DNA from: a virus
Length of the DNA stretch: 64,000 bases
Reading direction: 5' to 3' (one strand)
Virus record (IMG/VR): IMGVR_UViG_3300042507_003741
Location: 1-64,000 of that record
The translations under genes and the position numbers were made by a program. The notes under the pieces are model-generated. The model searched no databases and was not told the DNA's origin. It was given only the letters and a program-made list of their open reading frames with translations. Below are positions 2,629 through 62,022 of the stretch, in pieces (position 1 is the stretch's first letter; the number at the start of each line of letters is the position of its first letter).

Positions 2629-2835
2629 ATGCCGACGTTCAACTACGTCCACTGCACCTGCTGCGGCAACCAATTCACGGATCGGCTCGGCCTTCTTCGC
2701 GGCATCGACGCTCTCCACTTCGTCTGCACCTTGTGCGACGACGAGCGGCGTGTGGAGAACGCCGACGCCCATAGCCGCTGGCTCGACGAGATGGAGGCGC
2801 AGTGCGGCTGGTTCTCCGCTGCCGACGAGCGGTGA
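2629..2835 (+). CDS. Small Cys-rich (zinc-binding-like) protein
   Basis: GGAGG RBS; CTCC...CTLC. Confidence 0.7.
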   Translation: MPTFNYVHCTCCGNQFTDRLGLLRGIDALHFVCTLCDDERRVENADAHSRWLDEMEAQCGWFSAADER

Positions 2836-2910
2836 TTTGCCGCTGCGGAGTCTGCCTTTCGGTGGCCGACGTTCGGCCTGCCGTCCCGTCCCTCTCACTC
2901 GGAGCGTCCC

Positions 2911-3090
2911 ATGTTCTGCGTCGTGTCCATCACCGCCAGCGGCGAGCGTCGTGCCTACGTCTTTCCCTGCGAGCGGAAGGCCCGCTGGTACATCAACGAC
3001 AACGCGGATGGCGTGCGGCTGTTCGTGTTGTACGACCCTGCCGGCGAAGTCGTGATCGAGTCTCGGTTCCCGGTGCTGATGGTGGCCTAA
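2911..3090 (+). CDS. Hypothetical protein (59 aa, MFCVVSITASG...)
   Basis: GGAG RBS, ATG 2911, TAA 3088-3090, lies between two motif copies; below ORF-track cutoff. Confidence 0.65.
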   Translation: MFCVVSITASGERRAYVFPCERKARWYINDNADGVRLFVLYDPAGEVVIESRFPVLMVA

Positions 3091-3176
3091 ATCGCCGCTG
3101 CGGAGTCTGAATTGTGGCGGCGGCACGTTGCCGTTCGTCACTGGTTCGGTTGTTTCTTTCCATGAGGAGAATTGCC

Positions 3177-3593
3177 ATGACGATTGCCCAAATCCAGAAG
3201 ATCGCTGCCGAAGCCGTTGCCAATGCCCTGCGGCTCACGCAGACCCAAGATGCCCCCGCCCCCGTGAAGAAGGCGAGCGGCGACCTCAAGGCCAAACGGC
3301 TGGCCGCATTGGAGAAGGCCCGTGCCGCGAAGAAGGCGAAGGCGCAGGCCAAGCCCGCAGCCGTTGTCGCGGAACCCGTGAAGAAGCCCGCGAAGGTGAA
3401 GAAGGCACGCCCCGCATGGAGCGTCAAGGATCATGTCACGAAGAAGAACGTGAAGGGCCAGATCGTGCAGATCGGACCGTTCACCGCGTGGCTCCCAGAG
3501 GGCGACGAGGAGCGCAAGGCTGCGGTGTTCTCCGCGATCAACGACGTGTGCCGCACGGACGAAGTGCGGAAGTTGGCCGCTGCCATCCGCTGA
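3177..3593 (+). CDS. Lys/Ala-rich basic protein, possible DNA-binding
   Basis: GAGGAG RBS; KARAAKKAKAQAKPAA...KKPAKVKKA. Confidence 0.75.
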   Translation: MTIAQIQKIAAEAVANALRLTQTQDAPAPVKKASGDLKAKRLAALEKARAAKKAKAQAKPAAVVAEPVKKPAKVKKARPAWSVKDHVTKKNVKGQIVQIGPFTAWLPEGDEERKAAVFSAINDVCRTDEVRKLAAAIR

Positions 3594-3730
3594 TTCCGCC
3601 GCTGCGGAGTCTGACCAGTGAGGGCCGACGACGGCTCGGGCGGGTTCGTAGCCCGCCCCCTCACCTACGCCCATCGCAACTTCGCGGTGGGCGTTTGTGT
3701 TTCTAGTCCCTGTTTCACAAGGAGTTCACC

Positions 3731-3952
3731 ATGCCCCGTTCCCCTCTCGCCCAGTTCACCGGCAAAGACGGCTGCCTGTACCTCATCAACCTCAAGAGCG
3801 ACGGTCGCGTGTACGGTCCGTACCTGGACGCAAAGCAGGTTCGCATGGCCCGTGCCTGCATCCCCGCCCACGAGCACAGCAACGACGTTGTGCGTGCGTT
3901 CCGCGACGGCCTGCCTGCGGGGGAGGCCGACGTCAATCCGCTGACCCGGTAA
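3731..3952 (+). CDS. Hypothetical protein
   Basis: AAGGAG RBS; bounded by motif copies. Confidence 0.75.
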   Translation: MPRSPLAQFTGKDGCLYLINLKSDGRVYGPYLDAKQVRMARACIPAHEHSNDVVRAFRDGLPAGEADVNPLTR

Positions 3953-4048
3953 ATCACCGCTGCGGAGTCTGATTTTCACACTGCGAATGGGGCCAGTCGT
4001 CACGGTGGCGGCTGGCCCCGTCGCATTTCACCCACGAGGAGCGATGCC

Positions 4049-4393
4049 ATGTACGAACCACTCGACAACACCACGCCTCACTGGCCCGACGACTGCGGCC
4101 ACGACACGCTCGATCCCGCGTCTTTCGTGGGCACGTTCAAGATGTTTCATCACCCCCGCGAGGCGATTGTGGACGTGTACGTCTATGACGCACTTGGCGA
4201 CCCGCTGTCGCAGGGCATCTGCCTTCGGCACGGAACCGATCACCTCTATTCCACCGTGCGGGTGAACGAGATGTTCGATCACCCAATCGGCATGGAGTAC
4301 GACGGCGGGCTGCTCCGCTGCGCACGCACGTTTCTACTGTCACGGGGCACGTTTCGCTGGCAACCAGTGGCCGCAGTCGCCCACGACAACTGA
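4049..4393 (+). CDS. Hypothetical protein
   Basis: GAGGAG RBS; bounded by motif copies. Confidence 0.7.
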   Translation: MYEPLDNTTPHWPDDCGHDTLDPASFVGTFKMFHHPREAIVDVYVYDALGDPLSQGICLRHGTDHLYSTVRVNEMFDHPIGMEYDGGLLRCARTFLLSRGTFRWQPVAAVAHDN

Positions 4394-4479
4394 TTCGATA
4401 CGCGATTCCGCCGCTGCGGAGTCTGGATTCTGACCGGCGGCACAGTGCCGCCCGGCTTTCACCACGAAGGGAGTGCGTC

Positions 4480-4833
4480 ATGCACAAAGAGATCGCAGAA
4501 ATGTGGGTCGCTGCACTGCGAAGCGACGAGTACGGGCAGACCTACGGGTATCTCCGCCAGGAGTACGAGCCCGGCCAGTTTGCCTACTGTGCGTTGGGCG
4601 TGCTGTGCGACATCCACGCGAAGGCCACCGGCCTGCCTTTCGACAAAGAAAACGGCGGGCTCCCAACGGAAGTCGCCGTGTGGGCGGGCCTGCACTGGCT
4701 TGACCCGGATGTCGTCATGCCCGTTGGCGACAACGAGGAGGAGCACATGTCCATCACGTCTGCCAACGACGAGTACGGGTTTCCGTTCTCGCAAATCGCA
4801 GCGGCCATCTCGACGCAGTGGGAACGCCTGTAG
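4480..4833 (+). CDS. Conserved-type phage hypothetical protein
   Basis: WVAALRSxEY..YCALGVLCD..ND..GFPFSQIA pattern; GGGAG RBS. Confidence 0.75.
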   Translation: MHKEIAEMWVAALRSDEYGQTYGYLRQEYEPGQFAYCALGVLCDIHAKATGLPFDKENGGLPTEVAVWAGLHWLDPDVVMPVGDNEEEHMSITSANDEYGFPFSQIAAAISTQWERL

Positions 4834-4911
4834 TTCCCGCTGCGGAGTCTGTCTCTCGGTGACCGGACGTTCCGGCCACCCGTCCCTTGTCCCTTGTTTT
4901 GAGGAGTTCCC

Positions 4912-5082
4912 ATGCGCACGCATGTCACCACCACCAGCCCCCGCCTCATGCACTTCGTCTCGCTCGCCCGCGTGGCAAGCGAGGTGGGTGCGAAGTCGCA
5001 GCGTCACCTTCTGGCCGACCTCCGCACGCTCACCCATCGTGAGCGTCGTGAAGTGGCCGACCTCGTGAAGAAGGAGGGCTGA
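4912..5082 (+). CDS. Hypothetical protein (56 aa, MRTHVTTTSP...)
   Basis: GAGGAG RBS, ATG 4912, TGA 5080-5082. Confidence 0.65.
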   Translation: MRTHVTTTSPRLMHFVSLARVASEVGAKSQRHLLADLRTLTHRERREVADLVKKEG

Positions 5083-5085
5083 TGT

Positions 5086-5343
5086 ATGGAGTGGATCAAA
5101 TGCACAGACAGGCTTCCGCCAGACGCTCGCCCGACATACGCACAGCCTCCTGTGCTGGCGTGTACGAGGGGTGGCACTCGGCAGGCGATGCACTACGACC
5201 ACGACATGAAGGACTGGTACTGCGCTCAAGGCGATGGCTATGGGGTGCATGGCGACATCACCCACTGGATGCCGATGCCGCCGCCGCCGCCGGAGCAGGA
5301 ACGCAAAGAGATCGCTGATGTTCTGTACCCAGAGGAGGACTGA
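5086..5343 (+). CDS. DUF551-like protein
   Basis: MEWIKCTDRLP...ITHWMPMPPPP. Confidence 0.8.
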   Translation: MEWIKCTDRLPPDARPTYAQPPVLACTRGGTRQAMHYDHDMKDWYCAQGDGYGVHGDITHWMPMPPPPPEQERKEIADVLYPEED

Positions 5344-5346
5344 CAC

Positions 5347-5775
5347 ATGGCCGAAGCATACAAGGTCGCGGCTTCGTACCGCGATTCGATCCTCGCCCAC
5401 CAACGCATCCTGTGCGGCGATGACGTAGGCGAGGGCAAGGCATGGCAGGAGCAGGCCATGCGCCTGTCGCATGAACTGGAACGCTACGCCAGTTTCCTGC
5501 GGGACTGCGTGGGCGGCGGCTATCCCGGCCCCGTCGCGTTCCCATCATGGGACGAGGATGCTGCGGAACGATGGGACGGATACCAAATGGTGTGCGATGC
5601 GATCCGCAAGGCCGATCTCATCGACTATCTGGAGCAAAGCCGCTCCACGCTCAGCGATGCGATTTTTGATGGCAGGCGTGGACTGAACGCCAGCCTGGAC
5701 GCGATGCGGGCGACCTCTCTGGCCGCAGACGCCACCACGTTTTTGCGGGCGCTCGGCGTTCCGCAGGAGGACTGA
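5347..5775 (+). CDS. Hypothetical protein
   Basis: GGAGG RBS; contiguous in operon. Confidence 0.65.
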   Translation: MAEAYKVAASYRDSILAHQRILCGDDVGEGKAWQEQAMRLSHELERYASFLRDCVGGGYPGPVAFPSWDEDAAERWDGYQMVCDAIRKADLIDYLEQSRSTLSDAIFDGRRGLNASLDAMRATSLAADATTFLRALGVPQED

Positions 5776-5903
5776 TGGGCAACAAGTGGAACGACCAGTG
5801 GTGGTCACTGGTCAAGGCTGAACGAGTCAAGGAGGAGGAGCGACTGCGAGTGGCACGCAAGCACGCCAAGCGAGCCACTCGCCGCAAACAAAAGCAGCGG
5901 TGA
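5775..5903 (+). CDS. Small basic protein (42 aa)
   Basis: TGATG coupling, GGAGG RBS, stop just before motif copy 8. Confidence 0.5.
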   Translation: MGNKWNDQWWSLVKAERVKEEERLRVARKHAKRATRRKQKQR

Positions 5904-5989
5904 TCCGCCGCTGCGGAGTCTGGTTTTCGGCATGGGCCGTCCCGTCGTGGGGCGGCCCTTTCTTTTTCACCTTCGCTGAGGAGCGAGAC

Positions 5990-7234
5990 ATGAGCGACGA
6001 GAACGAAGTCCTGCACGACGAGTACGGGTTCAACGAGACCACCGGCATCCACCACGAGACGGGAACCTTGTGGGATCCCAACGGGTTCGACATGGAGGGG
6101 ATCCACCCAGCCACCGAGACGGAGTTCCACCCTACCACCTCCCGCACGCGCGACGGCGAGGCATACGACTCGGCGGGGTACGACTACAGGGGCTTCAACG
6201 AGGACGGCTACGACCGGGATGGGTACGACTCGGACGGGTACAACTACAACGGGGAGGACTGCTACGGCTTCACCCGCTGCGCCAACGGCGAGTGCGACGA
6301 CGACGACTGCGAGTGTCACGGCTCGGGCTTCGACGACCAACTCGACGACTACGGCACGCGGGCTCACCTCGCGCATGGCTGGGCGGCTGACCCGGCTCGT
6401 GGCCCCGCGTACATGTACGCCGGGCACGAGATCGAGATGTACTCCGACGACGAGGACTTCAGCGACGTGGAACACACGCTCGCCCAAGTCAACGACCTGT
6501 ATCGGAAACTCAATCCGCTCACCCGCAACCGCAAGTGCGCCATCGCCAAACGCGACGGCTCGCTCGACGAGTACGGTCCCGGCGGCTTTGAGTTGGTCAC
6601 GGTTCCGCTCACGACCGAGCAGGTCTACGGCATCTTCGGGGCGTTCAAGACGCTCGGCGACGGACGCTGCTCGGCGTGGAACATGGGCGAGGACGTTGGT
6701 CACCACATCCACCTGTCCAAAGCGGCCATCGGCCCGCTCACGCTGGGCAAGTTGCTGGTGTTCATGAACGCCGAGCCCAACCGCACGTTCCTGGAGGCCA
6801 TCGCCTGTCGCCCTGCGGGGTTCAACAAGTTCCGCACCAAGCAACTGACCCAGACGGAGAACAGCGACCGCTACGAAGTGCTGAACGTGACGAACACCAC
6901 CGTCGAGTTCCGCCTGTTCAAGAGCAACCTGTACAGCCGAGCGATCCTCAAGAACCACGAGTTCGCCGTTGCGGCTGTCAAGTTCTGCGAGCAGGCAGCA
7001 CACGGGTTCGGTGCGGTCGAGTCGTCCCTCGACCCGCTGCACGTCGCCAACTTCCGCGACTTCGTGGCGGTCAACCGCAGTGCGTACCGCTACCTGCATG
7101 AGTTCCTGCTGTCGCATCCGCTCATCAGCGGCGGCTACCGCAGCAACAGTCCGCTCCCGGCGAGCATCGCCAACCCGAAGGAGCGGTCGCCCGTGTTCAA
7201 CATGATCCGTACGTCGTCCGTCGTCGGTGCCTGA
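5990..7234 (+). CDS. Putative amidoligase (COOH-NH2 ligase family) with N-terminal GYD/GFN repeats
   Basis: GHEIE, KRDGSL, GFELVT, GHHIHLS, RY..LN, TVEFRLF motifs; adjacent GATase. Confidence 0.75.
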   Translation: MSDENEVLHDEYGFNETTGIHHETGTLWDPNGFDMEGIHPATETEFHPTTSRTRDGEAYDSAGYDYRGFNEDGYDRDGYDSDGYNYNGEDCYGFTRCANGECDDDDCECHGSGFDDQLDDYGTRAHLAHGWAADPARGPAYMYAGHEIEMYSDDEDFSDVEHTLAQVNDLYRKLNPLTRNRKCAIAKRDGSLDEYGPGGFELVTVPLTTEQVYGIFGAFKTLGDGRCSAWNMGEDVGHHIHLSKAAIGPLTLGKLLVFMNAEPNRTFLEAIACRPAGFNKFRTKQLTQTENSDRYEVLNVTNTTVEFRLFKSNLYSRAILKNHEFAVAAVKFCEQAAHGFGAVESSLDPLHVANFRDFVAVNRSAYRYLHEFLLSHPLISGGYRSNSPLPASIANPKERSPVFNMIRTSSVVGA

Positions 7235-7271
7235 CCCCTGGTTTCACTCACACTCACAAGGAGATTCCTGC

Positions 7272-8123
7272 ATGTGCCTCGCCATCTACAAGCCCGCCAC
7301 CACCACGCCCGATTGGTCCGCCTACCGCAACGGCTTCGCCGTGAACGACGATTCGTGGGGGTTTGCCGTCGTCGTTGACGGCACGCTCGTCACCCGCTGC
7401 GGCATCGGCCCCTTTGAGGAGTTCCGCGAAGCCTTCAGCCCTTACGCCGACCGACAGGCCATCATCCACTTCCGATGGGCCACGCACGGCAAGAAGGACA
7501 CGGGCAACTGCCACCCGTTCATGGTGAGCGACGCGCTCGCCGTGATCCACAACGGCGTGATCTCCATCCAGTGCGACGTGGACAAGGATCGCAGTGACAC
7601 TTGGCACTTCAACGAGTTGGTGCTCAAGCCACTGCACTCTCGGGACGAGGACTTCTACCGCCGACGCGAGGTGGTGTACACGCAGCAACTCGCCCACTCC
7701 GGCAGCAAGTTCGTGTTCCTGCGGGCGGACGGCGACTACTCCATCTGGAACGAGGACGACGGCGACTGGTCGCGTGACGGTCACTGGTACAGCAACGACT
7801 CGCACGAGGGTTCGTACTACCGCAGCATCGGCTACGGACTGACCTCTCGCACCACGACGACGGCCACCAAGACCGAGCGTTCGTGGATCGAGGCGTCGGA
7901 TGGCAAGTGGAAGTACGTTGAGGAGGACACCGCCGCGTCCGCCTGCCGCACGGCGTACGACCGCATGGCCGACGAGCAGGAGGAGGAGGACCGCGAGGAT
8001 TCGTTCTACACCAACATGCGGGTGGAGGACTTGCTCGCCTACGGGTTCAGTCGCAAGTGCTTGGCAGAAGTGCAGGACATGCTCGGCCACTTGGGCATCG
8101 AGGCGCTGCACGACGCCCTCTGA
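7272..8123 (+). CDS. Class II (Ntn) glutamine amidotransferase
   Basis: N-terminal MC, NDDSWG, HFRWATHG, NCHPF, HNG, SDT. Confidence 0.88.
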   Translation: MCLAIYKPATTTPDWSAYRNGFAVNDDSWGFAVVVDGTLVTRCGIGPFEEFREAFSPYADRQAIIHFRWATHGKKDTGNCHPFMVSDALAVIHNGVISIQCDVDKDRSDTWHFNELVLKPLHSRDEDFYRRREVVYTQQLAHSGSKFVFLRADGDYSIWNEDDGDWSRDGHWYSNDSHEGSYYRSIGYGLTSRTTTTATKTERSWIEASDGKWKYVEEDTAASACRTAYDRMADEQEEEDREDSFYTNMRVEDLLAYGFSRKCLAEVQDMLGHLGIEALHDAL

Positions 8124-8170
8124 TTTTCCCGCTGCGGAGTCTGTCTATACGGCAAGCAAGGAGGCAAGCC

Positions 8171-8263
8171 ATGCACCACTGGACCCATGCGGAGATCGAA
8201 ATCTTCCTCGCCATGTGCTACGTCGCCATGAAGGCGCTGGCACGGTGGGCGGAACTCGACTGA
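8171..8263 (+). CDS. Very small hydrophobic protein (30 aa)
   Basis: AAGGAGG RBS directly after motif copy 9. Confidence 0.45.
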   Translation: MHHWTHAEIEIFLAMCYVAMKALARWAELD

Positions 8264-8278
8264 CTAGAGGAACCCCAA

Positions 8279-8464
8279 ATGCAGCCAAGAGCCAAGCGAC
8301 TGTATCGGATTGCCGTGCAACAGGAGGAGAGCAAGCCCGAAAGAACTATGTACTTCACGTCCCATTCGTACGGGCCGATCCGCGTCGTGATGCGGCGGTT
8401 CGCAAAGCGATTCCCCAACTACTTCAGCATCGACGTTCGATGTGTAACACCAAAGGAGGAATGA
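8279..8464 (+). CDS. Small basic hypothetical protein
   Basis: GAGGA RBS; coupled to next ORF. Confidence 0.55.
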   Translation: MQPRAKRLYRIAVQQEESKPERTMYFTSHSYGPIRVVMRRFAKRFPNYFSIDVRCVTPKEE

Positions 8465-8736
8465 CCATGCCTTTTGCAGATGCCAAGTACCCGCCGTCCG
8501 CCAAGCGACTGTCTGGCGGAGGCTGGCCCGCTCACACCGTCACGCTAGCCAACGGGGAGCGACTGTACATCGAGGAGGCCGGGCCAAAGGTGGAGATCGC
8601 CTTGTGCGACAAGGGAACCGACAACCCCGATCTTTGGGTGTGCGCCATCACCCGAAACGGCGTGCTTACCTACGGGTACAGCGGTGATTCATGCGAGAGG
8701 ATCGCACAGGAGGTGCCGCTGTCATGTCGGACCTGA
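8461..8736 (+). CDS. Hypothetical protein (start 8461 or 8467)
   Basis: AAGGAGG RBS; MTMPFADAKYP... Confidence 0.6.
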   Translation: MTMPFADAKYPPSAKRLSGGGWPAHTVTLANGERLYIEEAGPKVEIALCDKGTDNPDLWVCAITRNGVLTYGYSGDSCERIAQEVPLSCRT

Positions 8737-9029
8737 CCCCACGCGAGCGAGAGATCCTCACCCTCATCGCCCGCTCGATTGACGCCAATGGATACCAGCC
8801 TTCCTACCGGGAGATCGCCGCCCACTTCGGGTGGACCGGGCTCGGCTGGTTGCAGTACCTCGCCCGCCGCATCGCACTCAAGGGCCATGCCCAAGTGATC
8901 GGCCCCCGTGCGTGGTCGTTCGACTGGAAGTCTTACCTCAAGGAGCAGAAGCATGACGCTGCAAGAACTGATGGATCGCGTACTCGCCGTGTTCCCCGAC
9001 GCCATGTTCGACGAGAGCGACGCGCGTGA
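8724..9029 (+). CDS. LexA-type winged-HTH DNA-binding protein, no peptidase domain
   Basis: LTPREREILTLI...NGYQPSYREIAAHFG; AGGAGG RBS. Confidence 0.8.
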   Translation: MSDLTPREREILTLIARSIDANGYQPSYREIAAHFGWTGLGWLQYLARRIALKGHAQVIGPRAWSFDWKSYLKEQKHDAARTDGSRTRRVPRRHVRRERRA

Positions 9030-9117
9030 GGTCGTCATCTACACCGGGATGCTCCGGCATCCGGATGACAACTGGAACACAGGCTCGCGACCCGTCGAAC
9101 CGTTGACGGAGAACTGA
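8953..9117 (+). CDS. Small acidic hypothetical protein
   Basis: AAGGAG RBS; MTLQELMDRV... Confidence 0.55.
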   Translation: MTLQELMDRVLAVFPDAMFDESDAREVVIYTGMLRHPDDNWNTGSRPVEPLTEN

Positions 9118-9147
9118 AAACATGTACACTCAAACAGGAGGCGGGGC

Positions 9148-9324
9148 ATGCAATACCCGACTACTACTGTGACCCTCACGCCACGCGAGATCGACCTCAT
9201 CATCACGGCCCTGCACGAAAGTGCGGAGGATCGCGAGCAGTTCGATGAACCCGAGCAGTCGGCGGCGTTCGCCGTCTTGCAGCGGAGGTTCGTCAAGGCA
9301 CAGAACCAAGTCATCACCCACTGA
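9148..9324 (+). CDS. Hypothetical protein (58 aa, MQYPTTTVTLTPREIDL...)
   Basis: AGGAGG RBS; fills gap between genes. Confidence 0.6.
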   Translation: MQYPTTTVTLTPREIDLIITALHESAEDREQFDEPEQSAAFAVLQRRFVKAQNQVITH

Positions 9325-9335
9325 AAGGATCCACC

Positions 9336-10214
9336 ATGACACCGACAACTCTCACCATCGGGTCGGGGCTCGGCGGCATCGCCATCCTCAACACCAAGAC
9401 GGTCAACCGCGACCGCCTCTACTGGGCGGCGGACAACGTGAACTGCGGGCAGTTCGTCCCTGCCCAGCCCGCTCGCACGACCGTGCTGCGGGACTGCATG
9501 AAGGACGTAGCCGACAGCCTGTACGGCCGCATCCGCAGGCAGCCCAACGTGGTGCGGCAACTGGACGACCCCGCCTCGTTTGAGGTGGTGCGTGTGGTGC
9601 CGGGCCAGTCGCAGAACGAGTACCGCTTCCTGTTCTCGGCCCTCATCGGCACGAACTGGGACGTTGGCATCCTGGAGTACGACTCCGCCGGGCCACGCGG
9701 CTCACAGGTTCTCGCCTCGCTCGACCCTGCGGTCGTGCAGCAGCGGGACTACCTGCCGTCCAGCGTGGTCGGTCAGGTGGTGGTCAAGATGCTCCGCCAC
9801 TGGAAGGCCACGCCCCTCAAGGACGACGGCGGCGTGTGGTTCATGCTGGGCCAGACGCTTGAGGACTTCCGCACGTTCGCACGCCTGCTGCTCGGGCCTC
9901 ACGCAGACGGCCCGCGATTCACCGTTCACCAAGTCGAGATCGCGTCCGATCCCGACACGGTGATGCACGTTCTCGACCGGCTCGGCTCGGAAGTGCAGGC
10001 CGGTCTGGCGGAGATCATGACCGACGTGATGGAAGCGACCGGCGGCATGGCCGACCGCTCTATCAACGTGCGAATCAACAGGGCCGACAGGTTTCTGGAG
10101 AAGGTGCGGTTGTACGAGCAGGTGCTCGGCCGACCGCTGCCCGAACTGACTGCGGCCATCGACCAAGTGAAGCAGGCAGTCGCCGTCAATCGGCTGCTGG
10201 CTGCGGCTGTCTGA
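9336..10214 (+). CDS. Hypothetical protein, possibly DUF3150/DUF6744-like partner of the AAA-vWA module
   Basis: 292 aa; GGVWF motif and helical C-terminus; context upstream of AAA/vWA; family call tentative. Confidence 0.6.
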   Translation: MTPTTLTIGSGLGGIAILNTKTVNRDRLYWAADNVNCGQFVPAQPARTTVLRDCMKDVADSLYGRIRRQPNVVRQLDDPASFEVVRVVPGQSQNEYRFLFSALIGTNWDVGILEYDSAGPRGSQVLASLDPAVVQQRDYLPSSVVGQVVVKMLRHWKATPLKDDGGVWFMLGQTLEDFRTFARLLLGPHADGPRFTVHQVEIASDPDTVMHVLDRLGSEVQAGLAEIMTDVMEATGGMADRSINVRINRADRFLEKVRLYEQVLGRPLPELTAAIDQVKQAVAVNRLLAAAV

Positions 10215-10241
10215 CCAATCCCACTCACTAAGGAGAGTGTT

Positions 10242-10559
10242 ATGCGTACGCTTCGCCTCGACTACAGCAAGTTCATCAGCGAGTACAAGGAAGCCCTGTC
10301 GTGTGACCTGCACTTCAAGGAGTTCTTGCAACTCGCCGGCATCAGTCCGTTCATGCTCAACGACAGGCTCAAGACGCTGGCCCGACGCGGCCTCGTCCTG
10401 CCCAAGTTGAAGGGCATGCGGAACAGGAAAAGCGGGGCCGCCCCCGCTCGTCGCAAGGTCAGACGCCCGCGCGTCTCGTCCAGGCCGAAGGCGGGTCACG
10501 CCACGCCCGCAACCGTGCGGGAAGCGGACTTGGCCTTCGTGATCTGCGTCGGCGGCTGA
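10242..10559 (+). CDS. Basic hypothetical protein, possible HTH
   Basis: AAGGAG RBS. Confidence 0.6.
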   Translation: MRTLRLDYSKFISEYKEALSCDLHFKEFLQLAGISPFMLNDRLKTLARRGLVLPKLKGMRNRKSGAAPARRKVRRPRVSSRPKAGHATPATVREADLAFVICVGG

Positions 10560-10662
10560 CGTTTTCCCCGCAGTTTTCCCGCTGCGGAGTCTGTTTGTGG
10601 GGGGCGGGGTAGCATCGTGCCGCCCCGCCCCCATTCCTTCCCTACTCAGGAGCATTTCGATC

Positions 10663-11766
10663 ATGCCTCGCACCACACTCGGCAACACCCCCGCGTTCCT
10701 CGCCTGTCAGGTCGCTCCCGTTCTGGTCACGGGCGGCACGGGCGTCGGCAAGTCCTCAACGTGGGAGGCACTGGCCGCCGCACTTGGGCGGGCGTTCGTC
10801 CCGCTGCTCGGTGCCACCCACCTGCCCGAAGATTTCTCTGGCTACCCCATCCCTGACCACAAGGCAGGCGTCGTCCGCATGATGCCGACCTCCCTGTGGG
10901 ACAAGACCAAAGACGGCAAGGCTCTCGTGCTCGTGGACGAGGTGACCAACGTGCCGTCTGCCACGCAAGGAGGCTTGCTCTCCGTCCTGTCGGAGCGACG
11001 AGTCGGCGAGTACGTCATGCCGGCATCGACCATCATCGTCGGTGCGTGCAACCCACCGGAACTGTGCCCCAATGCGGTGCCCCTCGCGCCTGCCATGCGG
11101 GCACGGTTCGTCCACTTCCCATGGGAGGTGGACTACGACCACTGGTTCACCGGCCTGCGGGCTGGCTGCCATTGGACGGCTCCGCAGTTCCCCATCGTGC
11201 CGGAACACTGGACCGACTTCCTCCCGCAGTTCGGCTCGCTGGTGGAGGCGTTCCTCCGCTCGGCACCCGACGCTCGGGAGAAGTTGCCGCAGGACGACGA
11301 GACGATGGCGTTCCCCAACCTGCGGACCTGGACGTTCCTCGCCAAGTGCTTCGCTGCGGCGGGTGCCTGCGGGTACGAACAGAAAGACCCCATCTACCGG
11401 CCGCTCGCCGTTGGCTGCGTCGGTGCGGAGGTGGGCGGCGAGTTCCTCCGGTACTGGCACCGGCTCGACCTGCTCAATCCGGAGGCGTACCTGTCCGGTG
11501 CGGAGGACTACAAGTACGAGCGTCGGCCCGACGCCAACATCTGCTTCCTCACTGGGCTGGTGAAGTCGCTGCGTGACAACACCAGCAAGGAGCGGTGGAC
11601 TCGTGCGGCGGAGGCATTCATCACCATCGGGGAGCAGGAGATCGAGTCGTTTCTCATGCAGTTCCGTTCGTTCTGGAATCCTGTCAGCAAGGGGGGCGTG
11701 CGTCCCGATGGCTGGTCGCCCCCGAAGGACGTGCTGGCGAAGTTGATGGCTCTGGTTCAGTCGTGA
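10663..11766 (+). CDS. MoxR-like AAA+ ATPase
   Basis: Walker A GGTGVGKS, Walker B LVLVDE, sensor GACNP, AMRARF arginine finger. Confidence 0.88.
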   Translation: MPRTTLGNTPAFLACQVAPVLVTGGTGVGKSSTWEALAAALGRAFVPLLGATHLPEDFSGYPIPDHKAGVVRMMPTSLWDKTKDGKALVLVDEVTNVPSATQGGLLSVLSERRVGEYVMPASTIIVGACNPPELCPNAVPLAPAMRARFVHFPWEVDYDHWFTGLRAGCHWTAPQFPIVPEHWTDFLPQFGSLVEAFLRSAPDAREKLPQDDETMAFPNLRTWTFLAKCFAAAGACGYEQKDPIYRPLAVGCVGAEVGGEFLRYWHRLDLLNPEAYLSGAEDYKYERRPDANICFLTGLVKSLRDNTSKERWTRAAEAFITIGEQEIESFLMQFRSFWNPVSKGGVRPDGWSPPKDVLAKLMALVQS

Positions 11767-26984: not shown

Positions 26985-27967
26985 AGTCTCCCAAGAACGT
27001 GAGCCGGAAATGGAAGTTCAACAACCTCGCCGTGCGATTCCGGCAGCCACCAGTCGAGGTCTTCGCGCAATCGAAGTTCAGCAAGGGCGGCATCCATGAG
27101 CCGCCGGCCCTCTGCGACCACAGCAGAAGGGAGAGTCACGACCTGACAGTCGTGAGGCAGAGACGTTGAGACGACAATGAATCGCAGCGGCTGCGGGTCC
27201 AGCCCCATCGCTTCCATGCCGCACTGATACCACGCATCCTGGAGGTGGTAGCGGAAGTCCATGACTGACCGCCAGAAGTTCGCCAGGATGTCCGCCTCGC
27301 GGGTGGTCTTGAGGTCAATTGCCAGACCGTCGCGGGTGATCGCGTCGAACCTGCACTTGAGTTGGTGGCCTTCTGGCGAGCGCCAATACGCGCCCACTTC
27401 ATGCTCGGAGATTGTGGACAGGAGTTCACGGGATGCTGGGTTGTTCTTGATCGCCGACACTTCCGCGACGATCTGGGCTCGCTCCTTCGGGGATACGACT
27501 GTTGCCCCCTCTGGGGCCTCGTTTTTGGCCCATTTCTCCGCTTCTTTGCCAACCAGCCCGGTGGCTGTTAGGGTTGCTGGCGGAGGGACGACCAGCGACT
27601 CAAGGAAGTCATCGCCCAGTTCCAGCCACGAATGCAGCAGCGTGCCATGATCGGTGGCGCTGCTGGAGAACGGCGGCAGGGTCTTGGCGATGTACCGCTG
27701 GTGGTACAGGACAGGCGAGTCAAGGAGCGTTTTGATTCGGCTGCACGACCTGTGCGTTTCATTGGCGTGATACTCGGCGTTTGCCTCTCCTCGCCGAATC
27801 ACGGCCTCTACATGTGGCGAGTACGCTTCCGATTCTGTGGGCGTACATGCTGCTTGTAGGTGCTCCGTTTGAGGGGTTCGTACTTTGCCGGATGCGCAGC
27901 CGAGTTGAAAGTCGGCCGGGCTGTCCGATAAATCACCCCTCACATCAAGTGAGGCAACCATGTCCAA
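26981..27967 (-). CDS. RecE/exonuclease VIII-like PD-(D/E)XK nuclease (DUF3799-like); start uncertain
   Basis: EYHA..SCSRIK; GTLLH; KCRFD; IDLKTT; YHLQDAWY; adjacent ERF. Confidence 0.82.
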   Translation of the reverse strand: MDMVASLDVRGDLSDSPADFQLGCASGKVRTPQTEHLQAACTPTESEAYSPHVEAVIRRGEANAEYHANETHRSCSRIKTLLDSPVLYHQRYIAKTLPPFSSSATDHGTLLHSWLELGDDFLESLVVPPPATLTATGLVGKEAEKWAKNEAPEGATVVSPKERAQIVAEVSAIKNNPASRELLSTISEHEVGAYWRSPEGHQLKCRFDAITRDGLAIDLKTTREADILANFWRSVMDFRYHLQDAWYQCGMEAMGLDPQPLRFIVVSTSLPHDCQVVTLPSAVVAEGRRLMDAALAELRLREDLDWWLPESHGEVVELPFPAHVLGRL

Positions 27968-28784
27968 TAACCTCCCTGTCCTGGTGGAGCGATACCTCCG
28001 CTCCCGATCCGTCAGTCCTGGCTACGCCCGAAATGTCCGTGCCGTCTGCTTGGCCTGTCGCACCATGTCCGTCGATGCAATCAACACGTATCTGCAAAAA
28101 CGAATCGTCGAGGTGGCTTCGATTACCGCAGCGACCGAGCGAGCGATTCTCGTTGGCATCTGGAAGTGGGCCTACGAAACCGAAGTAGTGGATCGACTGC
28201 CACGCGGAATAGTCAAGATCAAAATCGCCCGGCGTCCGACTCGGGCGTGGACTATAGAACAGTGCTGTACGGCCGTCAAGGGGACTTTCGCCCTCGCCGA
28301 AGAAGTGCGTCGGAAGCGGGTGACAGTCGGCCTTTTTCTGCGGTGCTGGATGCTGCTGGGGTACGAAACGGGCGCGAGGCACGGGGACTTGTGGGAGATG
28401 AGGCAAGAAGACTTCGACCTGGATGCCGGCACCGTCCGCTGGTCGCAGCACAAGACCGGCGAGCCGCACGTCAAGATCATGAGCCGGCCCTGCCTGCTGG
28501 CCGTCCAGGAGATGCTGGAGCGGTCGCCAGACGGTCGCGTGCTGGGTTGGGTGATGTCAAAGAAATCGGGTCATCGGCGGATGCGGAAGTACCTGCGTGA
28601 CATGAAGTACGCGGGATCCTCCAAGTGGCTACGCCGCAGCGGGGCCACCCACATTGAGATGGAGCATCCTGGCAAGGGGCGGCTGCATCTTGGTCACAAG
28701 ACGCCTGGACTGGCCGAGCGGTGCTATATCGACTGGTCGCAGGTGCGCAGGGACATCCCGTGCGTGCCGTCGCTACTCAAATAG
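27960..28784 (+). CDS. Tyrosine recombinase/integrase
   Basis: YETGAR (Arg), KTG (Lys), WLRRSGAT, LGH, terminal Tyr (ERCY). Confidence 0.85.
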   Translation: MSNNLPVLVERYLRSRSVSPGYARNVRAVCLACRTMSVDAINTYLQKRIVEVASITAATERAILVGIWKWAYETEVVDRLPRGIVKIKIARRPTRAWTIEQCCTAVKGTFALAEEVRRKRVTVGLFLRCWMLLGYETGARHGDLWEMRQEDFDLDAGTVRWSQHKTGEPHVKIMSRPCLLAVQEMLERSPDGRVLGWVMSKKSGHRRMRKYLRDMKYAGSSKWLRRSGATHIEMEHPGKGRLHLGHKTPGLAERCYIDWSQVRRDIPCVPSLLK

Positions 28785-58042: not shown

Positions 58043-58699
58043 TCACCGTGTCTCCTTCAAGCCAGAAAGCACGCCGGGCTGCTGCTGTTGGGCGGCTCCA
58101 GCCCCGATCAGTGCAGGCACGGCCATGATGCGAACCGCATTCCGCAAGTGATGGTCGGGGAGGACAAACTCCCGGTCGTGATTGCGGGAACTTCCAGAGA
58201 ACGGCGTGTTGCGGACGTTGTATTGCGGCAACTCGTCGGCAGGCACGTCGATTCGGTAGATCGGCGCCTCCAGGTCGTTGTCGCCCACGTAGTAGTCCAG
58301 TTCGTGCGGGGCGTCTGTTGCCCACCGCCCTGCTGCGCCGGGCGGGTTGGGATCGAACTGATCCTGCATGGCATAGTCCCGCGAGCGCTTCCACTCGGCA
58401 TACGGAACCTGCTGGCCCCACATGTTCACCGTTTCCGGCGGCTTGTAGTTGAGCGCGGTTTCGCCAACGCGATAGGTCCGCACGTAGCCCTCTGAGGGAG
58501 GCTCGGCGGCACCGATGCGGCGAGTCAGTTCATCGAACCGCTGCTGGTGCAGGGGGTTCCCTTTGTGGTATCCGCCCACAGATCGAGGCGGGGCAGGAAC
58601 GGGTGCGGGCGGGGCTGGAGCGCGGACTTGCTCCGCCAACTCCGCCACCTTAGAGGCCCGCCCCAGACGGGCGGCAGCGAGCGCAGCGGGTGTTGCCAT
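58043..58699 (-). CDS. Hypothetical protein
   Basis: First gene after putative late promoter. Confidence 0.6.
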   Translation of the reverse strand: MATPAALAAARLGRASKVAELAEQVRAPAPPAPVPAPPRSVGGYHKGNPLHQQRFDELTRRIGAAEPPSEGYVRTYRVGETALNYKPPETVNMWGQQVPYAEWKRSRDYAMQDQFDPNPPGAAGRWATDAPHELDYYVGDNDLEAPIYRIDVPADELPQYNVRNTPFSGSSRNHDREFVLPDHHLRNAVRIMAVPALIGAGAAQQQQPGVLSGLKETR

Positions 58700-58713
58700 A
58701 GAAATCCCTCACG

Positions 58714-58727
58714 GGATTTATGGCCGC
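58714..58727 (-). promoter_or_regulatory. Putative late promoter motif GCGGCCATAAATCC
   Basis: Intergenic; heads the head-gene block. Confidence 0.55.
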
Positions 58728-58871
58728 CTACTTCGCCAACAGGTACAAACCCACGTTGGAGAAGGCGTACCCCAAGTAGGCGACCCCCATGCCGGGATTG
58801 CCCCGCCAGAACTGCTCGGCGGAGACGTAGGCGTAGATCAGCCCCGTCAGTGCTATCAGCCATCCGCTCAT
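58728..58871 (-). CDS. Small two-TM protein (47 aa, MSGWLIALTGLIYAYV...)
   Basis: Translated by hand; hydrophobic; below ORF-track cutoff. Confidence 0.6.
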   Translation of the reverse strand: MSGWLIALTGLIYAYVSAEQFWRGNPGMGVAYLGYAFSNVGLYLLAK

Positions 58872-58968
58872 TCGTCGTACGGGTAACCGTCCTCCGGGTC
58901 TTCGGTGTACGGGCCGGGCTCCGCGTCCTCATGGAACCAGGGGCGTACGTCGGGGTAGGTGGCTTGTG

Positions 58969-59295
58969 TCACTTTTCGACAGTTTCCGTGCCATCGCTCG
59001 GCGGGGCCGGGAGCGGCATCCAGTTAGTGATCCCGAATGAATCCACATCGTCATCGTCCATGCCGCAGAACCGCCACATCACCCCGTCATGCGATGCCAT
59101 CTGAGCAAGGCGAATGTCTTTCGGAAACGCTCTTGTGACAGCCAAGACGGCGGCATGCACTTCCGGCAGCCGCTCCGTCACCGGAATCCAGCGCGGCACT
59201 TGCTCCTCCAACTCTTCGATCTCGGCGTGCATCCTCCGCTCCTCTGGCGTGCAGTCGCAGTTCATGGGCTTCTGGTCGCAGATCGGGCAATACAT
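58969..59295 (-). CDS. DUF551-like protein
   Basis: RWIPVTERLP...ITNWMPLPAPP; GAGGAG RBS. Confidence 0.8.
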   Translation of the reverse strand: MYCPICDQKPMNCDCTPEERRMHAEIEELEEQVPRWIPVTERLPEVHAAVLAVTRAFPKDIRLAQMASHDGVMWRFCGMDDDDVDSFGITNWMPLPAPPSDGTETVEK

Positions 59296-59315
59296 CCTAC
59301 TTCTCCTCTACGCTC

Positions 59316-59364
59316 ACAGAACCAAGCGATGCAGCGGACGAGACGCTGATCGCCAGCGTTCTCA
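59316..59364 (+). other. attC-like recombination site 1
   Basis: ACAGAAC-CAAGC-GATGCAGC-GGACGAGAC-GCTGATC-GCCAGC-GTTCTCA. Confidence 0.8.
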
Positions 59365-59592
59365 CTCATCGACACTAACTGCGGCGCCTTCAACGGTCGG
59401 CTCATTGAGTTCATAGGCCGGAACATCAGCCTCCACCCACCGAATCTGTTTGTCGCCGTCGTTTCCTTCCATGCACTCATACGCAATGTTGGCGGCTTCG
59501 CGACCAGCGTTCTGCCAGCCGTTTGCGGAATAATTGCCATCCTCCGACACGCACACCGCTATGCGAACCCGAATCGTTTTTGCTTCGCTCAT
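59362..59592 (-). CDS. Cassette-borne hypothetical protein (MSEAKTIRVRIAV...)
   Basis: AGGAG RBS; stop abuts GTT of site 1. Confidence 0.7.
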   Translation of the reverse strand: MSEAKTIRVRIAVCVSEDGNYSANGWQNAGREAANIAYECMEGNDGDKQIRWVEADVPAYELNEPTVEGAAVSVDE

Positions 59593-59611
59593 TGCCTGTC
59601 TCCTGTTCTTG

Positions 59612-59660
59612 TGAGAACCACGCGATGCAGCGGACGAGCCGCTGATCGCTGGCGTTATGC
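59612..59660 (+). other. attC-like recombination site 2
   Basis: TGAGAAC-CACGC-GATGCAGC-GGACGAGCC-GCTGATC-GCTGGC-GTTATGC. Confidence 0.85.
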
Positions 59661-59924
59661 GGTCGGGTACTTCTTCTGAAACTGCTCGTACGTCATCGCG
59701 TCCCCTTGGCCGCCGACGCCTGTTGCGATGAATGACCCGCGCGATACCCGGATGGATTTCACGCCCTTCAACTTCTTCCGGCCGGTGAACTCGCGGTATC
59801 TGATTGCTGACCAGCCCTTGCCTTGGCAGTGGATGCAGACCACAGCCTCCCCTTCGCCTTCGCACATGCCGCGATACAGGCCCGCCCCATGGCATTCGTC
59901 GCACTCACACTTGATGTCTGGCAT
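59655..59924 (-). CDS. Cassette-borne DnaJ-type zinc-finger protein
   Basis: CDECHGAG and CIHCQGKG; AGGAGG RBS. Confidence 0.75.
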   Translation of the reverse strand: MPDIKCECDECHGAGLYRGMCEGEGEAVVCIHCQGKGWSAIRYREFTGRKKLKGVKSIRVSRGSFIATGVGGQGDAMTYEQFQKKYPTA

Positions 59925-59943
59925 TTGTCCTCCTGAGTCAACC

Positions 59944-59999
59944 GCATAACCAGCGGATGAAGCGGACGGCGGGGCCGCCGCTGATCCTGCGTGTTCTCA
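59944..59999 (+). other. attC-like recombination site 3
   Basis: GCATAAC-CAGCG-GATGAAGC-16 nt-GCTGATC-CTGCGT-GTTCTCA. Confidence 0.8.
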
Positions 60000-60269
60000 G
60001 CCCAGCCGTTGCAGTATCGATTCAACAGCCACCCTATGCGGCTCATACATGATCGTCGGAAGCATCCGACGGAGCGCCTCCCGCTCCGCGTCGGTGAGCG
60101 TGGGCTGCGGCTCGCGGTAGAGCGACTGCACTGCCATGTCGCCCGCAGCAACCATCTCTGCGTCAGGCCGGTGCAGAAAAAAGTCCGCGTGGTCAGTCCA
60201 CTCAACCATCCACGCCACCGGCTGAGAACCACGCGATGCAGCGGACATATCATCTACCTCGTCTGCCAT
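59997..60269 (-). CDS. Cassette-borne protein with PTLTDAEREAL module
   Basis: AGGAG RBS and ATG lie inside site 4. Confidence 0.7.
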   Translation of the reverse strand: MADEVDDMSAASRGSQPVAWMVEWTDHADFFLHRPDAEMVAAGDMAVQSLYREPQPTLTDAEREALRRMLPTIMYEPHRVAVESILQRLG

Positions 60270-60311
60270 GGTTGCTCCTGTGTTCGATGCCGCTGATCGC
60301 TGGCGTTCTAA
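60223..60311 (+). other. attC-like recombination site 4
   Basis: TGAGAAC-CACGC-GATGCAGC-49 nt-GCTGATC-GCTGGC-GTTCTAA. Confidence 0.8.
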
Positions 60312-60541
60312 TTGGTCCGCTCAAGCAGGCCGTCGATCACGGCGGCGACCTCCACACTGTCGGCAAACCGCCCCGCGAAGTAGTCTTCTCGCACTCGCCG
60401 CAGCACCTTCCTCAGCGACTCCCGCTCCTCGTCGGTGGGCCGCAGGCGTGCGACCTCCGCCTCTAACTGCTGCACTCGCTCCATCGCCTGGATTAGTGCA
60501 TCCAGATCGTCAGGCATCATCGGCGGCACAAGATCACTCAT
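60308..60541 (-). CDS. Hypothetical protein with PTDEERE...GLLERT module
   Basis: AAGGAG RBS; stop abuts GTT of site 4. Confidence 0.7.
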   Translation of the reverse strand: MSDLVPPMMPDDLDALIQAMERVQQLEAEVARLRPTDEERESLRKVLRRVREDYFAGRFADSVEVAAVIDGLLERTN

Positions 60542-60571
60542 GTCTGTCTCCTTTACGTTGAAATCACGCAA

Positions 60572-60802
60572 TCACTTCCTGTCGATCACCTTGCGTAGCG
60601 TGTCGGCATCCCGTCGCCGCTCGTCCCCCAGTTGCTCAAGCCTCTCGCGCAGAATGGAGTTCACGCCGCGCAGCCGCCATATCTCGTCTACCAGCGGATC
60701 GGCGCCGGTAGCCCAATGCAGCAGCCACGCCGATCCAATGAACGACGCCGGGATGAGTACGGCCAAGGAGAACCACGCATACCAAGGCATTTCGTTAGGC
60801 AT
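60572..60802 (-). CDS. Small membrane/coiled-coil protein (second copy)
   Basis: Near-identical to 1-230. Confidence 0.7.
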   Translation of the reverse strand: MPNEMPWYAWFSLAVLIPASFIGSAWLLHWATGADPLVDEIWRLRGVNSILRERLEQLGDERRRDADTLRKVIDRK

Positions 60803-61523
60803 TTGTTGTCCTCTCCAGAAGGCCGTCCAGCACCGCCGCTATCTCGTCGCACGCCACATCGCCAACGTCGGCGTAGGCGTCGCGTACTTCACGCAGGACG
60901 AATCGCTCCGCGTCGGTCAGCGTGAACGGCGTCAGCGAGCAGTGAAGCGTAGTGCGGCCAACAACGTGGGGGCAGGTCTGCGGGGTGCGGTAGAGCGGGA
61001 CGACCTCCCCGTCGTTTTCGTCCGCTGCCGCGTCGGCGTGTTCGCGGTGCAGCGAAACCATCTGCCATTCGTCGGAGTGTGCCAGCCACGCCACCGGATC
61101 CTGTGTATTGTGCCCCCGCCCACCCGCCGCCTCGCCGGTGCCGGGCCGCGTAACGTCTAGGGGCCGCCCCTCGCCGCTTCCATCGCTGGAGGCCGGTGGC
61201 TGCGCTATCGCAGGCGAGGAGCCATCTGTCTCCACGCATGGTGGAGCAGTCTGATTGCCGGTGCCCAACACGGGTCGCGTCACGGGTTTATCAGTCCCGC
61301 CGCTGCCGCGTCCTTCAGACGCATGAACGCCTGTTGGCAACTGGACTCTCGCCGCCGGCGCGGCGTCATGTTCGGTTCGCTCCCGCTCGCGGAGCATGGC
61401 GTCGGCCCAGCGGTAGGCAGCCGTGAGTAGGTGTTCCCACTGCAATGCAGTTGGGTACTGATTGGCCTCGTCTGACAGCAGCCCGGTCAGGGCCGCAGCG
61501 GCGAAGTGGTCACGGTCTGTCAT
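60795..61523 (-). CDS. Mosaic hypothetical protein (RDHFAAAALTGLL N-terminus; TLTDAER...GLLERT C-terminus)
   Basis: GAGGAGG RBS; shared module. Confidence 0.65.
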   Translation of the reverse strand: MTDRDHFAAAALTGLLSDEANQYPTALQWEHLLTAAYRWADAMLRERERTEHDAAPAARVQLPTGVHASEGRGSGGTDKPVTRPVLGTGNQTAPPCVETDGSSPAIAQPPASSDGSGEGRPLDVTRPGTGEAAGGRGHNTQDPVAWLAHSDEWQMVSLHREHADAAADENDGEVVPLYRTPQTCPHVVGRTTLHCSLTPFTLTDAERFVLREVRDAYADVGDVACDEIAAVLDGLLERTTNA

Positions 61524-61747
61524 GTCTTGTCCTCCTCGTTGGCCCACAGCATTGCGGCCTTCTCGTCCCAGCAGTCAGCCCGTCCCATGTCGAACCAGTG
61601 CGGGAAATGTCGCAGCACAGCCCGCGCCTCTTGGCGAACCTCCGTGCGGATCCCCTTGATGCCGCCCTCCACATAGACGTTGGAGAGCCGCACCAGGAAG
61701 TCGCGGGCACGGAGGACCGCTAGCGTTCGTTCACACGGGAGGGTCAT
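61520..61747 (-). CDS. BPSL0761-like small protein
   Basis: MTLPCERTLAV..AR.FL..VRQEARAVLRHFP. Confidence 0.65.
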   Translation of the reverse strand: MTLPCERTLAVLRARDFLVRLSNVYVEGGIKGIRTEVRQEARAVLRHFPHWFDMGRADCWDEKAAMLWANEEDKT

Positions 61748-62022
61748 GGCCACCTCGGGTACAGGAGGCAACCTTCATTGGCGTAGCCGTTCATCACTTC
61801 GATGGCGGAGATCCGCGGGAACTCCTTGGCCATCTCCTTGGCAATGTCCTCGCCAGGCAGCATGTCCAGCCGCTGGCGGTGGGCTGCCACCCAGGCTTGC
61901 ATCTTGGCCATGTCATCGCCGTGCGTCGGGCCATGCTCTTTCCTCTCAACCCAGGTCCGAATGACATGGTTGAAGGTGCGGAACTTTAGGATGTTTTCCC
62001 AGATCACTTGTTTGCCAAACAT
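61744..62022 (-). CDS. Hypothetical protein
   Basis: Coupled overlap. Confidence 0.6.
   Translation of the reverse strand: MFGKQVIWENILKFRTFNHVIRTWVERKEHGPTHGDDMAKMQAWVAAHRQRLDMLPGEDIAKEMAKEFPRISAIEVMNGYANEGCLLYPRWP

Follow-up and report, generated by a model that had tools for sequence, protein, structure and literature searches.

This report describes a compact array of four elements in the DNA of a virus, IMG/VR record IMGVR_UViG_3300042507_003741. The elements, here called E1 to E4, lie at 59316-60311 and have the build of integron attC sites; sequence comparisons support their identity as genuine members of that class. The window comprises bases 1-64,000 of the record, which is 81,601 nt long with a G+C content of ~63 %. 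The stretch or parts of it are contained in 24 sequencing runs labelled as lake-water or freshwater metagenomes, at least half of the sampled words being present in four of these, and a blastn search of 58700-61600 against 50,697 deposited phage records gave no match. Neighbouring elements are spaced by one small gene each, and the - strand encodes all genes of the array, whose stop codons coincide with or abut the GTT of an element (Table 1). Integrons count as a bacterial device, and published cases in phages, which are few, have been read as passengers. The arrangement described here is assessed below for its anatomy, its relatives in other viral and bacterial genomes, and the signs of cassette movement.

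Table 1. Sites, putative cassettes and adjoining genes of the array (window coordinates; each cassette starts with the TT of a site and stops at the G of the following one)
Feature	Coordinates	Strand	Description
attC-type site E1	59316..59364	+	Core from AAC 59320 to GTT 59360, 41 nt; R' GTTCTCA; upstream (- strand sense) of the DUF551 gene
attC-type site E2	59612..59660	+	Core 59616-59656, 41 nt; R' GTTATGC
attC-type site E3	59944..59999	+	Core 59948-59995, 48 nt; R' GTTCTCA
attC-type site E4	60223..60311	+	Core 60227-60307, 81 nt; R' GTTCTAA
Cassette 1	59359..59654	-	TT...G, 296 nt; gene 59362-59592 (76 aa, no family match) and E2 core
Cassette 2	59655..59993	-	339 nt; gene 59655-59924 and E3 core
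Cassette 3	59994..60305	-	312 nt; gene 59997-60269 (90 aa) and E4 core
Left terminal gene	58969..59295	-	DUF551, 108 aa; PF04448, E 2.7e-10; E1 on its 5' side
Right neighbour gene	60308..60571	-	87 aa; stop touches GTT of E4

The presence of four elements with attC anatomy is confirmed, with the positions, + strand and layout given in a preliminary description of this DNA. Each of the four reads AAC, 5 nt, an 8-nt L'' box (GATG[C/A]AGC), a loop, a 7-nt L' box (GCTGATC), 6 nt and GTT. The boxes pair so as to leave one extra base, the G at L'' position 4, and in all four sites the inverse core triplets AAC...GTT enclose an imperfect palindrome. E3 has one L-box mismatch (6/7 pairs), with GCTGATC in place of the GCTTATC of its relatives. 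Two peculiarities that had been pointed out earlier are real, namely the shortness of E1 and E2 and the three R' boxes that begin GTTCT (E1, E3 and E4), and the four sites, being of the GTTC or GTTA type at R', depart from the full consensus RYYYAAC / GTTRRRY. The exact 12-mer GATGMAGCGGAC occurs only at the four sites, the remaining 24 of 28 matches carrying one or two mismatches, and a fuzzy two-arm search of the whole record found paired arms only at 59316-60311. A rule blind to sequence, which asks for AAC-5-8-loop-7-6-GTT with 7/7 Watson-Crick L pairs on either strand, returned E1, E2 and E4 and no other element from the record, where 20 shuffles gave a mean of 0.4 and a maximum of 1. As for the attC-like fold of the bottom strand that had been proposed as a check, single-stranded DNA is predicted to form the expected hairpin at all four sites, at bottom-strand energies of -12.4 to -14.4 kcal/mol (E1 -12.4, E2 -13.8, E3 -14.1) and z-values, from E1 to E4, of -2.75, -3.46, -2.42 and -1.32; the + strand is predicted to fold into the expected hairpin as well.

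The ends of the intervals carry a further regularity. Bases following the GTT of one site are the reverse complement of those ahead of the AAC of the next, over 5, 7 and 7 nt (CTCAC, ATGCGGT and CTCAGCC), and this complementarity, claimed in the preliminary description, holds in 3/3 intervals: the paired ends are GTTCTCAC / GTGAGAAC in cassette 1, GTTATGCGGT / ACCGCATAAC in cassette 2 and GTTCTCAGCC / GGCTGAGAAC in cassette 3. The two flanks of the same element agree, by eye, over just 2, 0, 0 and 2 nt.

The comparisons draw on genomes, which carry G-numbers (G000 being the record of this phage), and on motif-picked loci from other records, which carry L-numbers; all viral loci compared were selected by the search motif. 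In a collection of bacterial and archaeal genomes that motif has 12 matching stretches, and an integron integrase (IntI) scoring above the TIGR02249 cut-off is encoded by 9/10 of the motif-bearing genomes tested and by 0/14 control genomes. At three places (contigs G001:C46, G003:C10 and G055:C155) the motif matches belong to arrays that begin at intI's side and are directed away from it, which is the standard integron layout; from the polarity of these bacterial arrays it follows that the + strand of the phage elements corresponds to the attC top strand. The geometry rule also picks out the intI-adjacent arrays of bacterial contigs. A covariance model, R1, was trained on 20 attC sites taken from intI-linked arrays (G001, G003, G052 and G053), with every site that has the phage L-box sequence excluded from the training set. 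Its top four matches in the 64-kb window are the four sites, all on the + strand (E1 21.3 bits, E 0.0094; E2 31.5 bits, E 5.3e-5; E3 21.3 bits, E 0.0096; E4 27.2 bits, E 4.6e-4), the next match having an E-value of 0.23, and in related viral loci totalling 955 kb it gives 194 matches at E <= 0.01. A check by covariance model, as suggested at the outset, has come down on the side of an attC identity, and this independent test, together with the pairing of cassette ends across the family set out below, supports the view that the four elements are integron-type attC sites. A cluster of attC sites lacking an integron integrase (CALIN) is defined by two or more attC sites close together with no intI nearby, and four sites within 1 kb without IntI make such a cluster here. 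A complete integron is not present, as there is no IntI match in the record, in agreement with what had been reported for this phage.

The elements belong to a large viral family. The search motif occurs in 99 stretches of IMG/VR viral contigs, and the geometry rule finds 298 elements in 1.04 Mb made up of the motif loci and the present record, with 288 of them on the majority strand of their own locus and with lengths that fall mainly into classes of 41-43 nt (115), 47-50 nt (31) and 77-83 nt (139). Covariation was assessed in 179 distinct elements gathered irrespective of pairing, where the counts are of sequences and not of events. Compensatory changes are found in the stem (CG in 129 and GC in 36 at position 16; GC in 114 and AT in 49 at position 17), the extra base, G in 174 elements, is C in the other 5, and AAC and GTT are kept in all 179, though both were demanded by the search. 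On the + strand A.C mismatches (32) outnumber G.T mismatches (11), and an A.C there equals a G.T wobble on the - strand; the bias is a weak hint that the - strand may be the one that folds. One locus, L097, has at 10578-10658 (in element orientation) an element whose left box belongs to the GCAGCGG type and whose right box belongs to the CTCCTGATC type, as has L101; since box types are mixed, this appears to be a chimeric core whose arms no longer pair fully.

Metagenome depth was taken from Logan contigs, which are assembled and not raw reads, in four runs (X1, X3, X5 and X7). Across 59310-60319, depth bins that bear elements reach hundreds to thousands, compared with ~15-38 for the unique pieces of this phage, so that element depth is ~30 to 170 times that of its unique sequence in these four lake metagenomes, and the repeat family must be far more abundant than this phage in these lakes. 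Many metagenome contigs diverge directly past GTT. Contig joints were also found that lead from 59656 to 59948 and, with 4 letters between, from 60246 to 60289 (short sides 21-37, intervening sequence unspecified); they fit other copies of the repeat family, and no conclusion on excision or circles is drawn from them. The cassettes are as diverse as the sites are uniform, 173 of them falling into 140 clusters at 80 % identity, with few informative pairs.

Family-wide, 94/152 distinct intervals of up to 700 nt are bounded by flanks (the right one of the first site, the left one of its successor) that are complementary over at least 5 nt. Under random re-pairing the share is 10.9 %, reaching 16.4 % at most in 200 trials; for the two flanks of an individual element it is 25/251, and for outer flanks 12/151. 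The left and right spacers of a single element are linked (mutual information z 20), whereas no linkage is seen between the right spacer of a site and the left spacer of its successor (z 0.3), which means that linkage switches within a few bases around GTT. Integron integrases cut at GTT. Junctions at G|TT are likewise quoted for the recombination of phage attC sites by Qi, Rajabal, Ghaly, Tetu and Gillings (2023, Front Microbiol, PMC9892861).

Breakpoints were located in 17 pairs of loci that share 200 nt at >= 97 % identity on a single side, four of these being contributed by L032/L038; flanks of 60 nt were set aside, being confounded by the conserved 5' regions of gene families. Five of the six right-shared pairs have unrelated cores and become identical at or just past GTT, and the sixth breaks at the AAC end. 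Among the 11 left-shared pairs, cores are identical in two, differ in the right spacer in four (one with an internal deletion in addition), differ in the loop or left spacer in four and are wholly different in one. The core thus follows the left cassette, as left-shared pairs often keep it and right-shared pairs seldom do. These alignments show the apparent main crossover to lie at GTT.

Relatives also differ in cassette content. Identical cassettes occur in the order A-B-C in L032 and X-B-C-A in L038, where the right-hand core moves with its cassette and the left-hand core does not. L023 agrees with the window base for base across the DUF551 gene as far as the AACCA of E1; past GTTC the two are unrelated, and four core positions of E1 differ after >140 identical bases. 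In L082, which comes from another sample, synteny holds to the left (58610-59030) and to the right (61483-61750), each at 91 %, and there are two sites in 814 nt as against four sites in 1874 nt here. The gain, loss and reordering of cassettes among relatives, which the preliminary description had proposed as a test, are therefore seen, but the breakpoints do not all fall at G|TT. Some exchange between near-identical cores, by homologous recombination or gene conversion, must be at work too, because breakpoints internal to the core exist in L023 and elsewhere. The central two bases of the right spacer, GC[TG/AA/CA/AG]GC, were moreover observed to differ between otherwise identical copies of cassette plus core (L038 vs L064 and L022 vs L097), as they do between E1 and E2 of the window. 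Neither these differences nor the core-internal breaks are explained by a single cut at G|TT.

The genes of the array run antisense to the attC top strand with stops touching GTT, as first described. Their reading on the - strand is supported by the DUF551 match, by a common LTDAERExLR motif and by substitution periodicity: substitutions among relatives favour third codon positions of the - frames in 4/5 open reading frames (ORFs) with data, including gene 60308-60571 (31/45), the frame of ORF 59997-60269 being ambiguous by this measure. The reversed orientation is real, and it extends beyond this phage, in that 124/150 intervals are filled to at least 80 % by an antisense ORF and 41/150 by a sense ORF. 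A classical cassette carries its gene in the sense direction and has attC at the 3' end of that gene; this array and most intervals of the family are built otherwise. Stops across the family keep fixed offsets from GTT (+1, +6 and -2), and the long sites of 77-83 nt have a start codon inside the loop, for the most part in a single frame. E4 belongs to these: on the - strand, gene 59997-60269 has both its ribosome-binding site and its ATG (60269) within the E4 loop.

The cargo is of phage type. Among 122 distinct cassette proteins from relatives DUF551 is commonest (17/122), Dam, Mom, AP2 and three further families are found once each, and the remainder are unmatched. In the present array, gene 59655-59924 encodes 89 aa and is Cys-rich and zinc-ribbon-like, with weak family matches only, and gene 59997-60269 carries the motif LTDAEREALRR, which is common to the phage's own small genes. 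LTDAERExLR-like coding stretches occur at 453, 785, 60075, 60416 and 60897, in - strand genes both inside and outside the array, so that the cargo appears paralogous to resident small genes, and the earlier remark that the cassettes resemble the phage's own genes holds good. At the two edges of the array, no attC-type site lies on the 3' side of the DUF551 gene 58969-59295 in this phage, and gene 60308-60571 has no attC-type site of its own upstream.

Some features of the record concern its wider make-up. AGCT has no site in 1-62067 and 42 in 62068-81601, and CCGCGG and CCCGGG are likewise absent upstream of ~60 kb; bases 1-232 repeat 60573-60804 at 97.8 % identity; and the match of the syntenic relative L082 ends at 61750. 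The 81.6-kb record may be a chimera or mosaic with a joint near 61.75-62.07 kb. Elsewhere in the window, at 2557-10610, a 15-mer, CCGCTGCGGAGTCTG, is present in ~10 copies between + strand genes and is probably a phage promoter or other regulatory motif of that module.

The closest bacterial counterpart of the phage sites is in a metagenome-assembled genome (MAG) of the Pirellulales, G055, where contig C155 has sites of 82, 80 and 50 nt beside an intI gene at 10505-11446, with the same L boxes and a loop that resembles that of the long phage sites. Their R' boxes read GTTCTCC, GTTCGGG and GTTCGGC, and the GTTC-type deviation is hence common to genuine integron sites. The first three cassettes there (locus L135, 7900-10500) are sense-oriented and, judged from their sequences without a family search, look like toxin-antitoxin or small paired genes. 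As IntI1 recombines 5/6 of the phage attC sites tested, from virulent phages, according to PMC9892861, action in trans is plausible; taken with the matching intI-adjacent Pirellulales array, this favours a host integron integrase acting in trans as the most likely enzyme. The host is probably an integron-bearing bacterium and possibly a planctomycete.

The anatomy, the homology to intI-linked attC sites, the end-pairing and covariation, the reordering, gain and loss of cassettes, the main break at GTT and the reversal of the genes, which the foregoing comparisons demonstrate, are probably best accounted for by a genuine attC CALIN in the small-gene region of a lake-water phage, whose cassettes are moved at G|TT by a host integrase. 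Under this account one cassette would begin at the TT of a site, end at the G of the site that follows and hold one small gene; a tyrosine recombinase would act on the folded bottom-strand (- strand) hairpin, crossing over at G|TT, and cassettes would be excised and re-inserted. The integrase would be supplied in trans during infection by a host whose own integron has the same attC type. With the gene antisense to the attC top strand the site would come to stand at the gene's 5' end, where the loop of a 77-83-nt site may supply the ribosome-binding site and start codon, and expression would depend on phage transcripts that read through the array along the - strand. What we infer from these data is the enzyme, the host and the continuance of exchange. 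A bolder proposal, which we advance tentatively and hold to be somewhat doubtful, is that phages of integron-bearing hosts keep a pool of 'reverse' cassettes that circulates among unrelated phages (33 to 97 kb) by means of the hijacked host IntI, with the attC ahead of the gene able to provide ribosome-binding site, start codon and first residues.

Several points weigh against the account by host integrase. The 81.6-kb record has no TIGR02249 match at E <= 10, and 0/45 related viral records, 13 of them >= 90 % complete, have one above the cut-off, so that action in trans has to be assumed. A single intI-adjacent array in a MAG underlies the planctomycete link, and binning can err. The R' boxes are GTTC- or GTTA-type instead of GTTRRRY. 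Left-shared pairs that differ in the loop or left spacer (4/11) or in the right spacer (four more) do not have the expected break, and two pairs, L009/L012 and L004/L094, break at the AAC end of the core, possibly as a trace of top-strand recombination or of homologous exchange. The pairs behind the linkage result are few and non-independent, every locus was chosen by motif, and in the assembled contigs, which are not raw reads, neither an excised circle nor a minority deletion was seen.

Some other repeat classes can be set aside. Clustered regularly interspaced short palindromic repeats (CRISPR) were dropped, the repeat spacing being one gene rather than ~30 nt; hairpins of repetitive extragenic palindromes with their associated transposases (REP/RAYT) and of IS200/IS605-type elements were dropped, as they do not predict complementary cassette ends, and intrinsic terminators were dropped for want of a T-run on the - strand.

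A rival of more substance holds that the hairpins are primarily regulatory RNA or DNA elements of a polycistronic early operon, as 5' untranslated regions, pause sites or processing sites (those of RNase III type included), and that cassettes are shuffled by general homologous recombination between the near-identical 41-nt cores. On the transcribed strand each element does mark a gene's 5' end, long ones hold a ribosome-binding site and ATG, several breakpoints lie inside the core, the strand to which the mismatch bias points (A.C 32 > G.T 11) is the mRNA strand, and papers exist on the PeSL 'mobile regulatory cassettes' of T4-type phages (PMC2839356, PMC4122927), for which shuffling of this kind has been proposed. 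This explanation is nevertheless unlikely as the primary one. The sites match R1 and have family members beside intI in bacteria; the conserved extra base and the unpaired spacers of 5 and 6 nt are attC features; and 5/6 right-shared pairs, whose cores have unrelated loops, break within the few bases at GTT despite the availability of identical blocks of 20 nt and 12 nt. A scan for one promoter type gave 0 sigma-70-like sites, the two terminator-like sites are at chance level and on the + strand only, and an Rfam search of 58500-61500 returned no match at E <= 1. Recombination and regulation are not mutually exclusive roles for a hairpin. It is quite unlikely that the phages run a self-contained system in which attC-like sites are recombined by their own tyrosine recombinase. 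This phage does encode one, of 274 aa at 27960-28784 (PF00589, E 3.5e-7; phrog_1 integrase), and PF00589 is matched in 27/45 related viral records and in 10/13 of those near-complete (>= 90 %). Three of those 13 are thus without a match, and the present enzyme is of the phage-integrase type and not IntI-like, being unmatched by the integron-integrase model and matched only faintly by NCBIfam models of generic recombinases. Its gene is 30 kb from the array, a phage integrase of ~300 aa is ordinarily explained by lysogeny, and the arrays, in phages of 33-97 kb, are not known to adjoin a recombinase, although no adjacency test was made.

That the array is a passive relic, a piece of a host array acquired once by a phage ancestor with no cassette movement since, would suit the lack of an integrase on the phage, and phages are known to carry fragments of chromosomal integrons, as PMC9892861 relates. 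Its phage-type cargo (DUF551 in 17/122, with one Dam and one Mom), its genes reversed with respect to the sense-oriented bacterial array of the same attC type, the spread of 173 cassettes over 140 clusters, the identical cassettes in different orders in near-identical contigs and the excess depth of the elements all make a relic very unlikely. An assembly artefact, in which short repeats led the assembler to stitch together cassettes of different phages, is scarcely credible: the elements are abundant repeats and the record looks composite near 62 kb, yet the unique pieces of 58300-60226 have an even depth (33-38 in X1, 27-35 in X3), the left flank is borne out as far as E1 by L023, an independent contig, the likewise independent contig L082 shows both flanks around an array at the same locus, and arrays occur in 99 stretches.

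A uniform family of at least 99 stretches, phage-type cargo, reversed polarity and sites that double as translation starts together suggest phages that use integron recombination for shuffling of their own. If a host integrase acts, this would explain how small accessory genes move between unrelated phages and would link the cassette pools of phage and host; integron machinery would then serve the shuffling of phage accessory and anti-restriction genes besides bacterial adaptation, and a physical route for gene flow between the two pools would exist, offering a new angle on the unsolved origin of cassettes. The sites also hint at a host, integron-bearing and possibly a planctomycete, for a group of uncultured lake phages.

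A literature search that left supplementary files aside found no paper on reversed-orientation phage attC arrays; nor was any paper found on phage-type cargo or the size of this attC family, on one uniform site family across many uncultured phages, on sites carrying a gene start, or on a link between planctomycete integrons and phage arrays. By the literature found, phage attC clusters are already known, and the reversed orientation, the uniform family, the start-carrying sites and the phage-type cargo appear to be new. The nearest precedent is PMC9892861, which reports 17 CALINs in isolated phages. Those clusters are alike in having attC in a phage genome without intI, at single-gene spacing, and in having cargo of the methyltransferase type, to which one Dam and one Mom in relatives of this phage correspond. 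Cassettes in that article, its supplementary tables aside, are oriented as in bacterial arrays, whereas here they are antisense, and the present sites form one highly uniform family of at least 99 viral stretches, with phage-type cargo, GTTC-type R' boxes and long sites that hold a ribosome-binding site and start codon. Sedentary chromosomal integrons, the Pirellulales array G055:C155 included, have in common with the phage arrays the attC anatomy, the L boxes, the size classes (~50 and 80-82 nt), the GTTC-type R', a high uniformity of sites within a family and the pairing of cassette ends. The Pirellulales array differs in having intI with room for attI, sense-oriented toxin-antitoxin-like pairs and attC at the 3' end, the phage arrays being without intI or attI and having their genes reversed. 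The PeSL elements of T4-type phages are reportedly motifs of promoter and terminator thought to act through homologous recombination. They are said to resemble the present sites in being short, conserved intergenic stem-loop repeats that flank small variable genes in hyperplastic regions where whole-gene modules are shuffled. The combination of early promoter and terminator stem-loop that marks PeSL was not found here in a scan that covered one promoter type, sigma-70, and the sites described here differ further in that they match attC models, have an extra-helical base and unpaired spacers, and break mainly at GTT.

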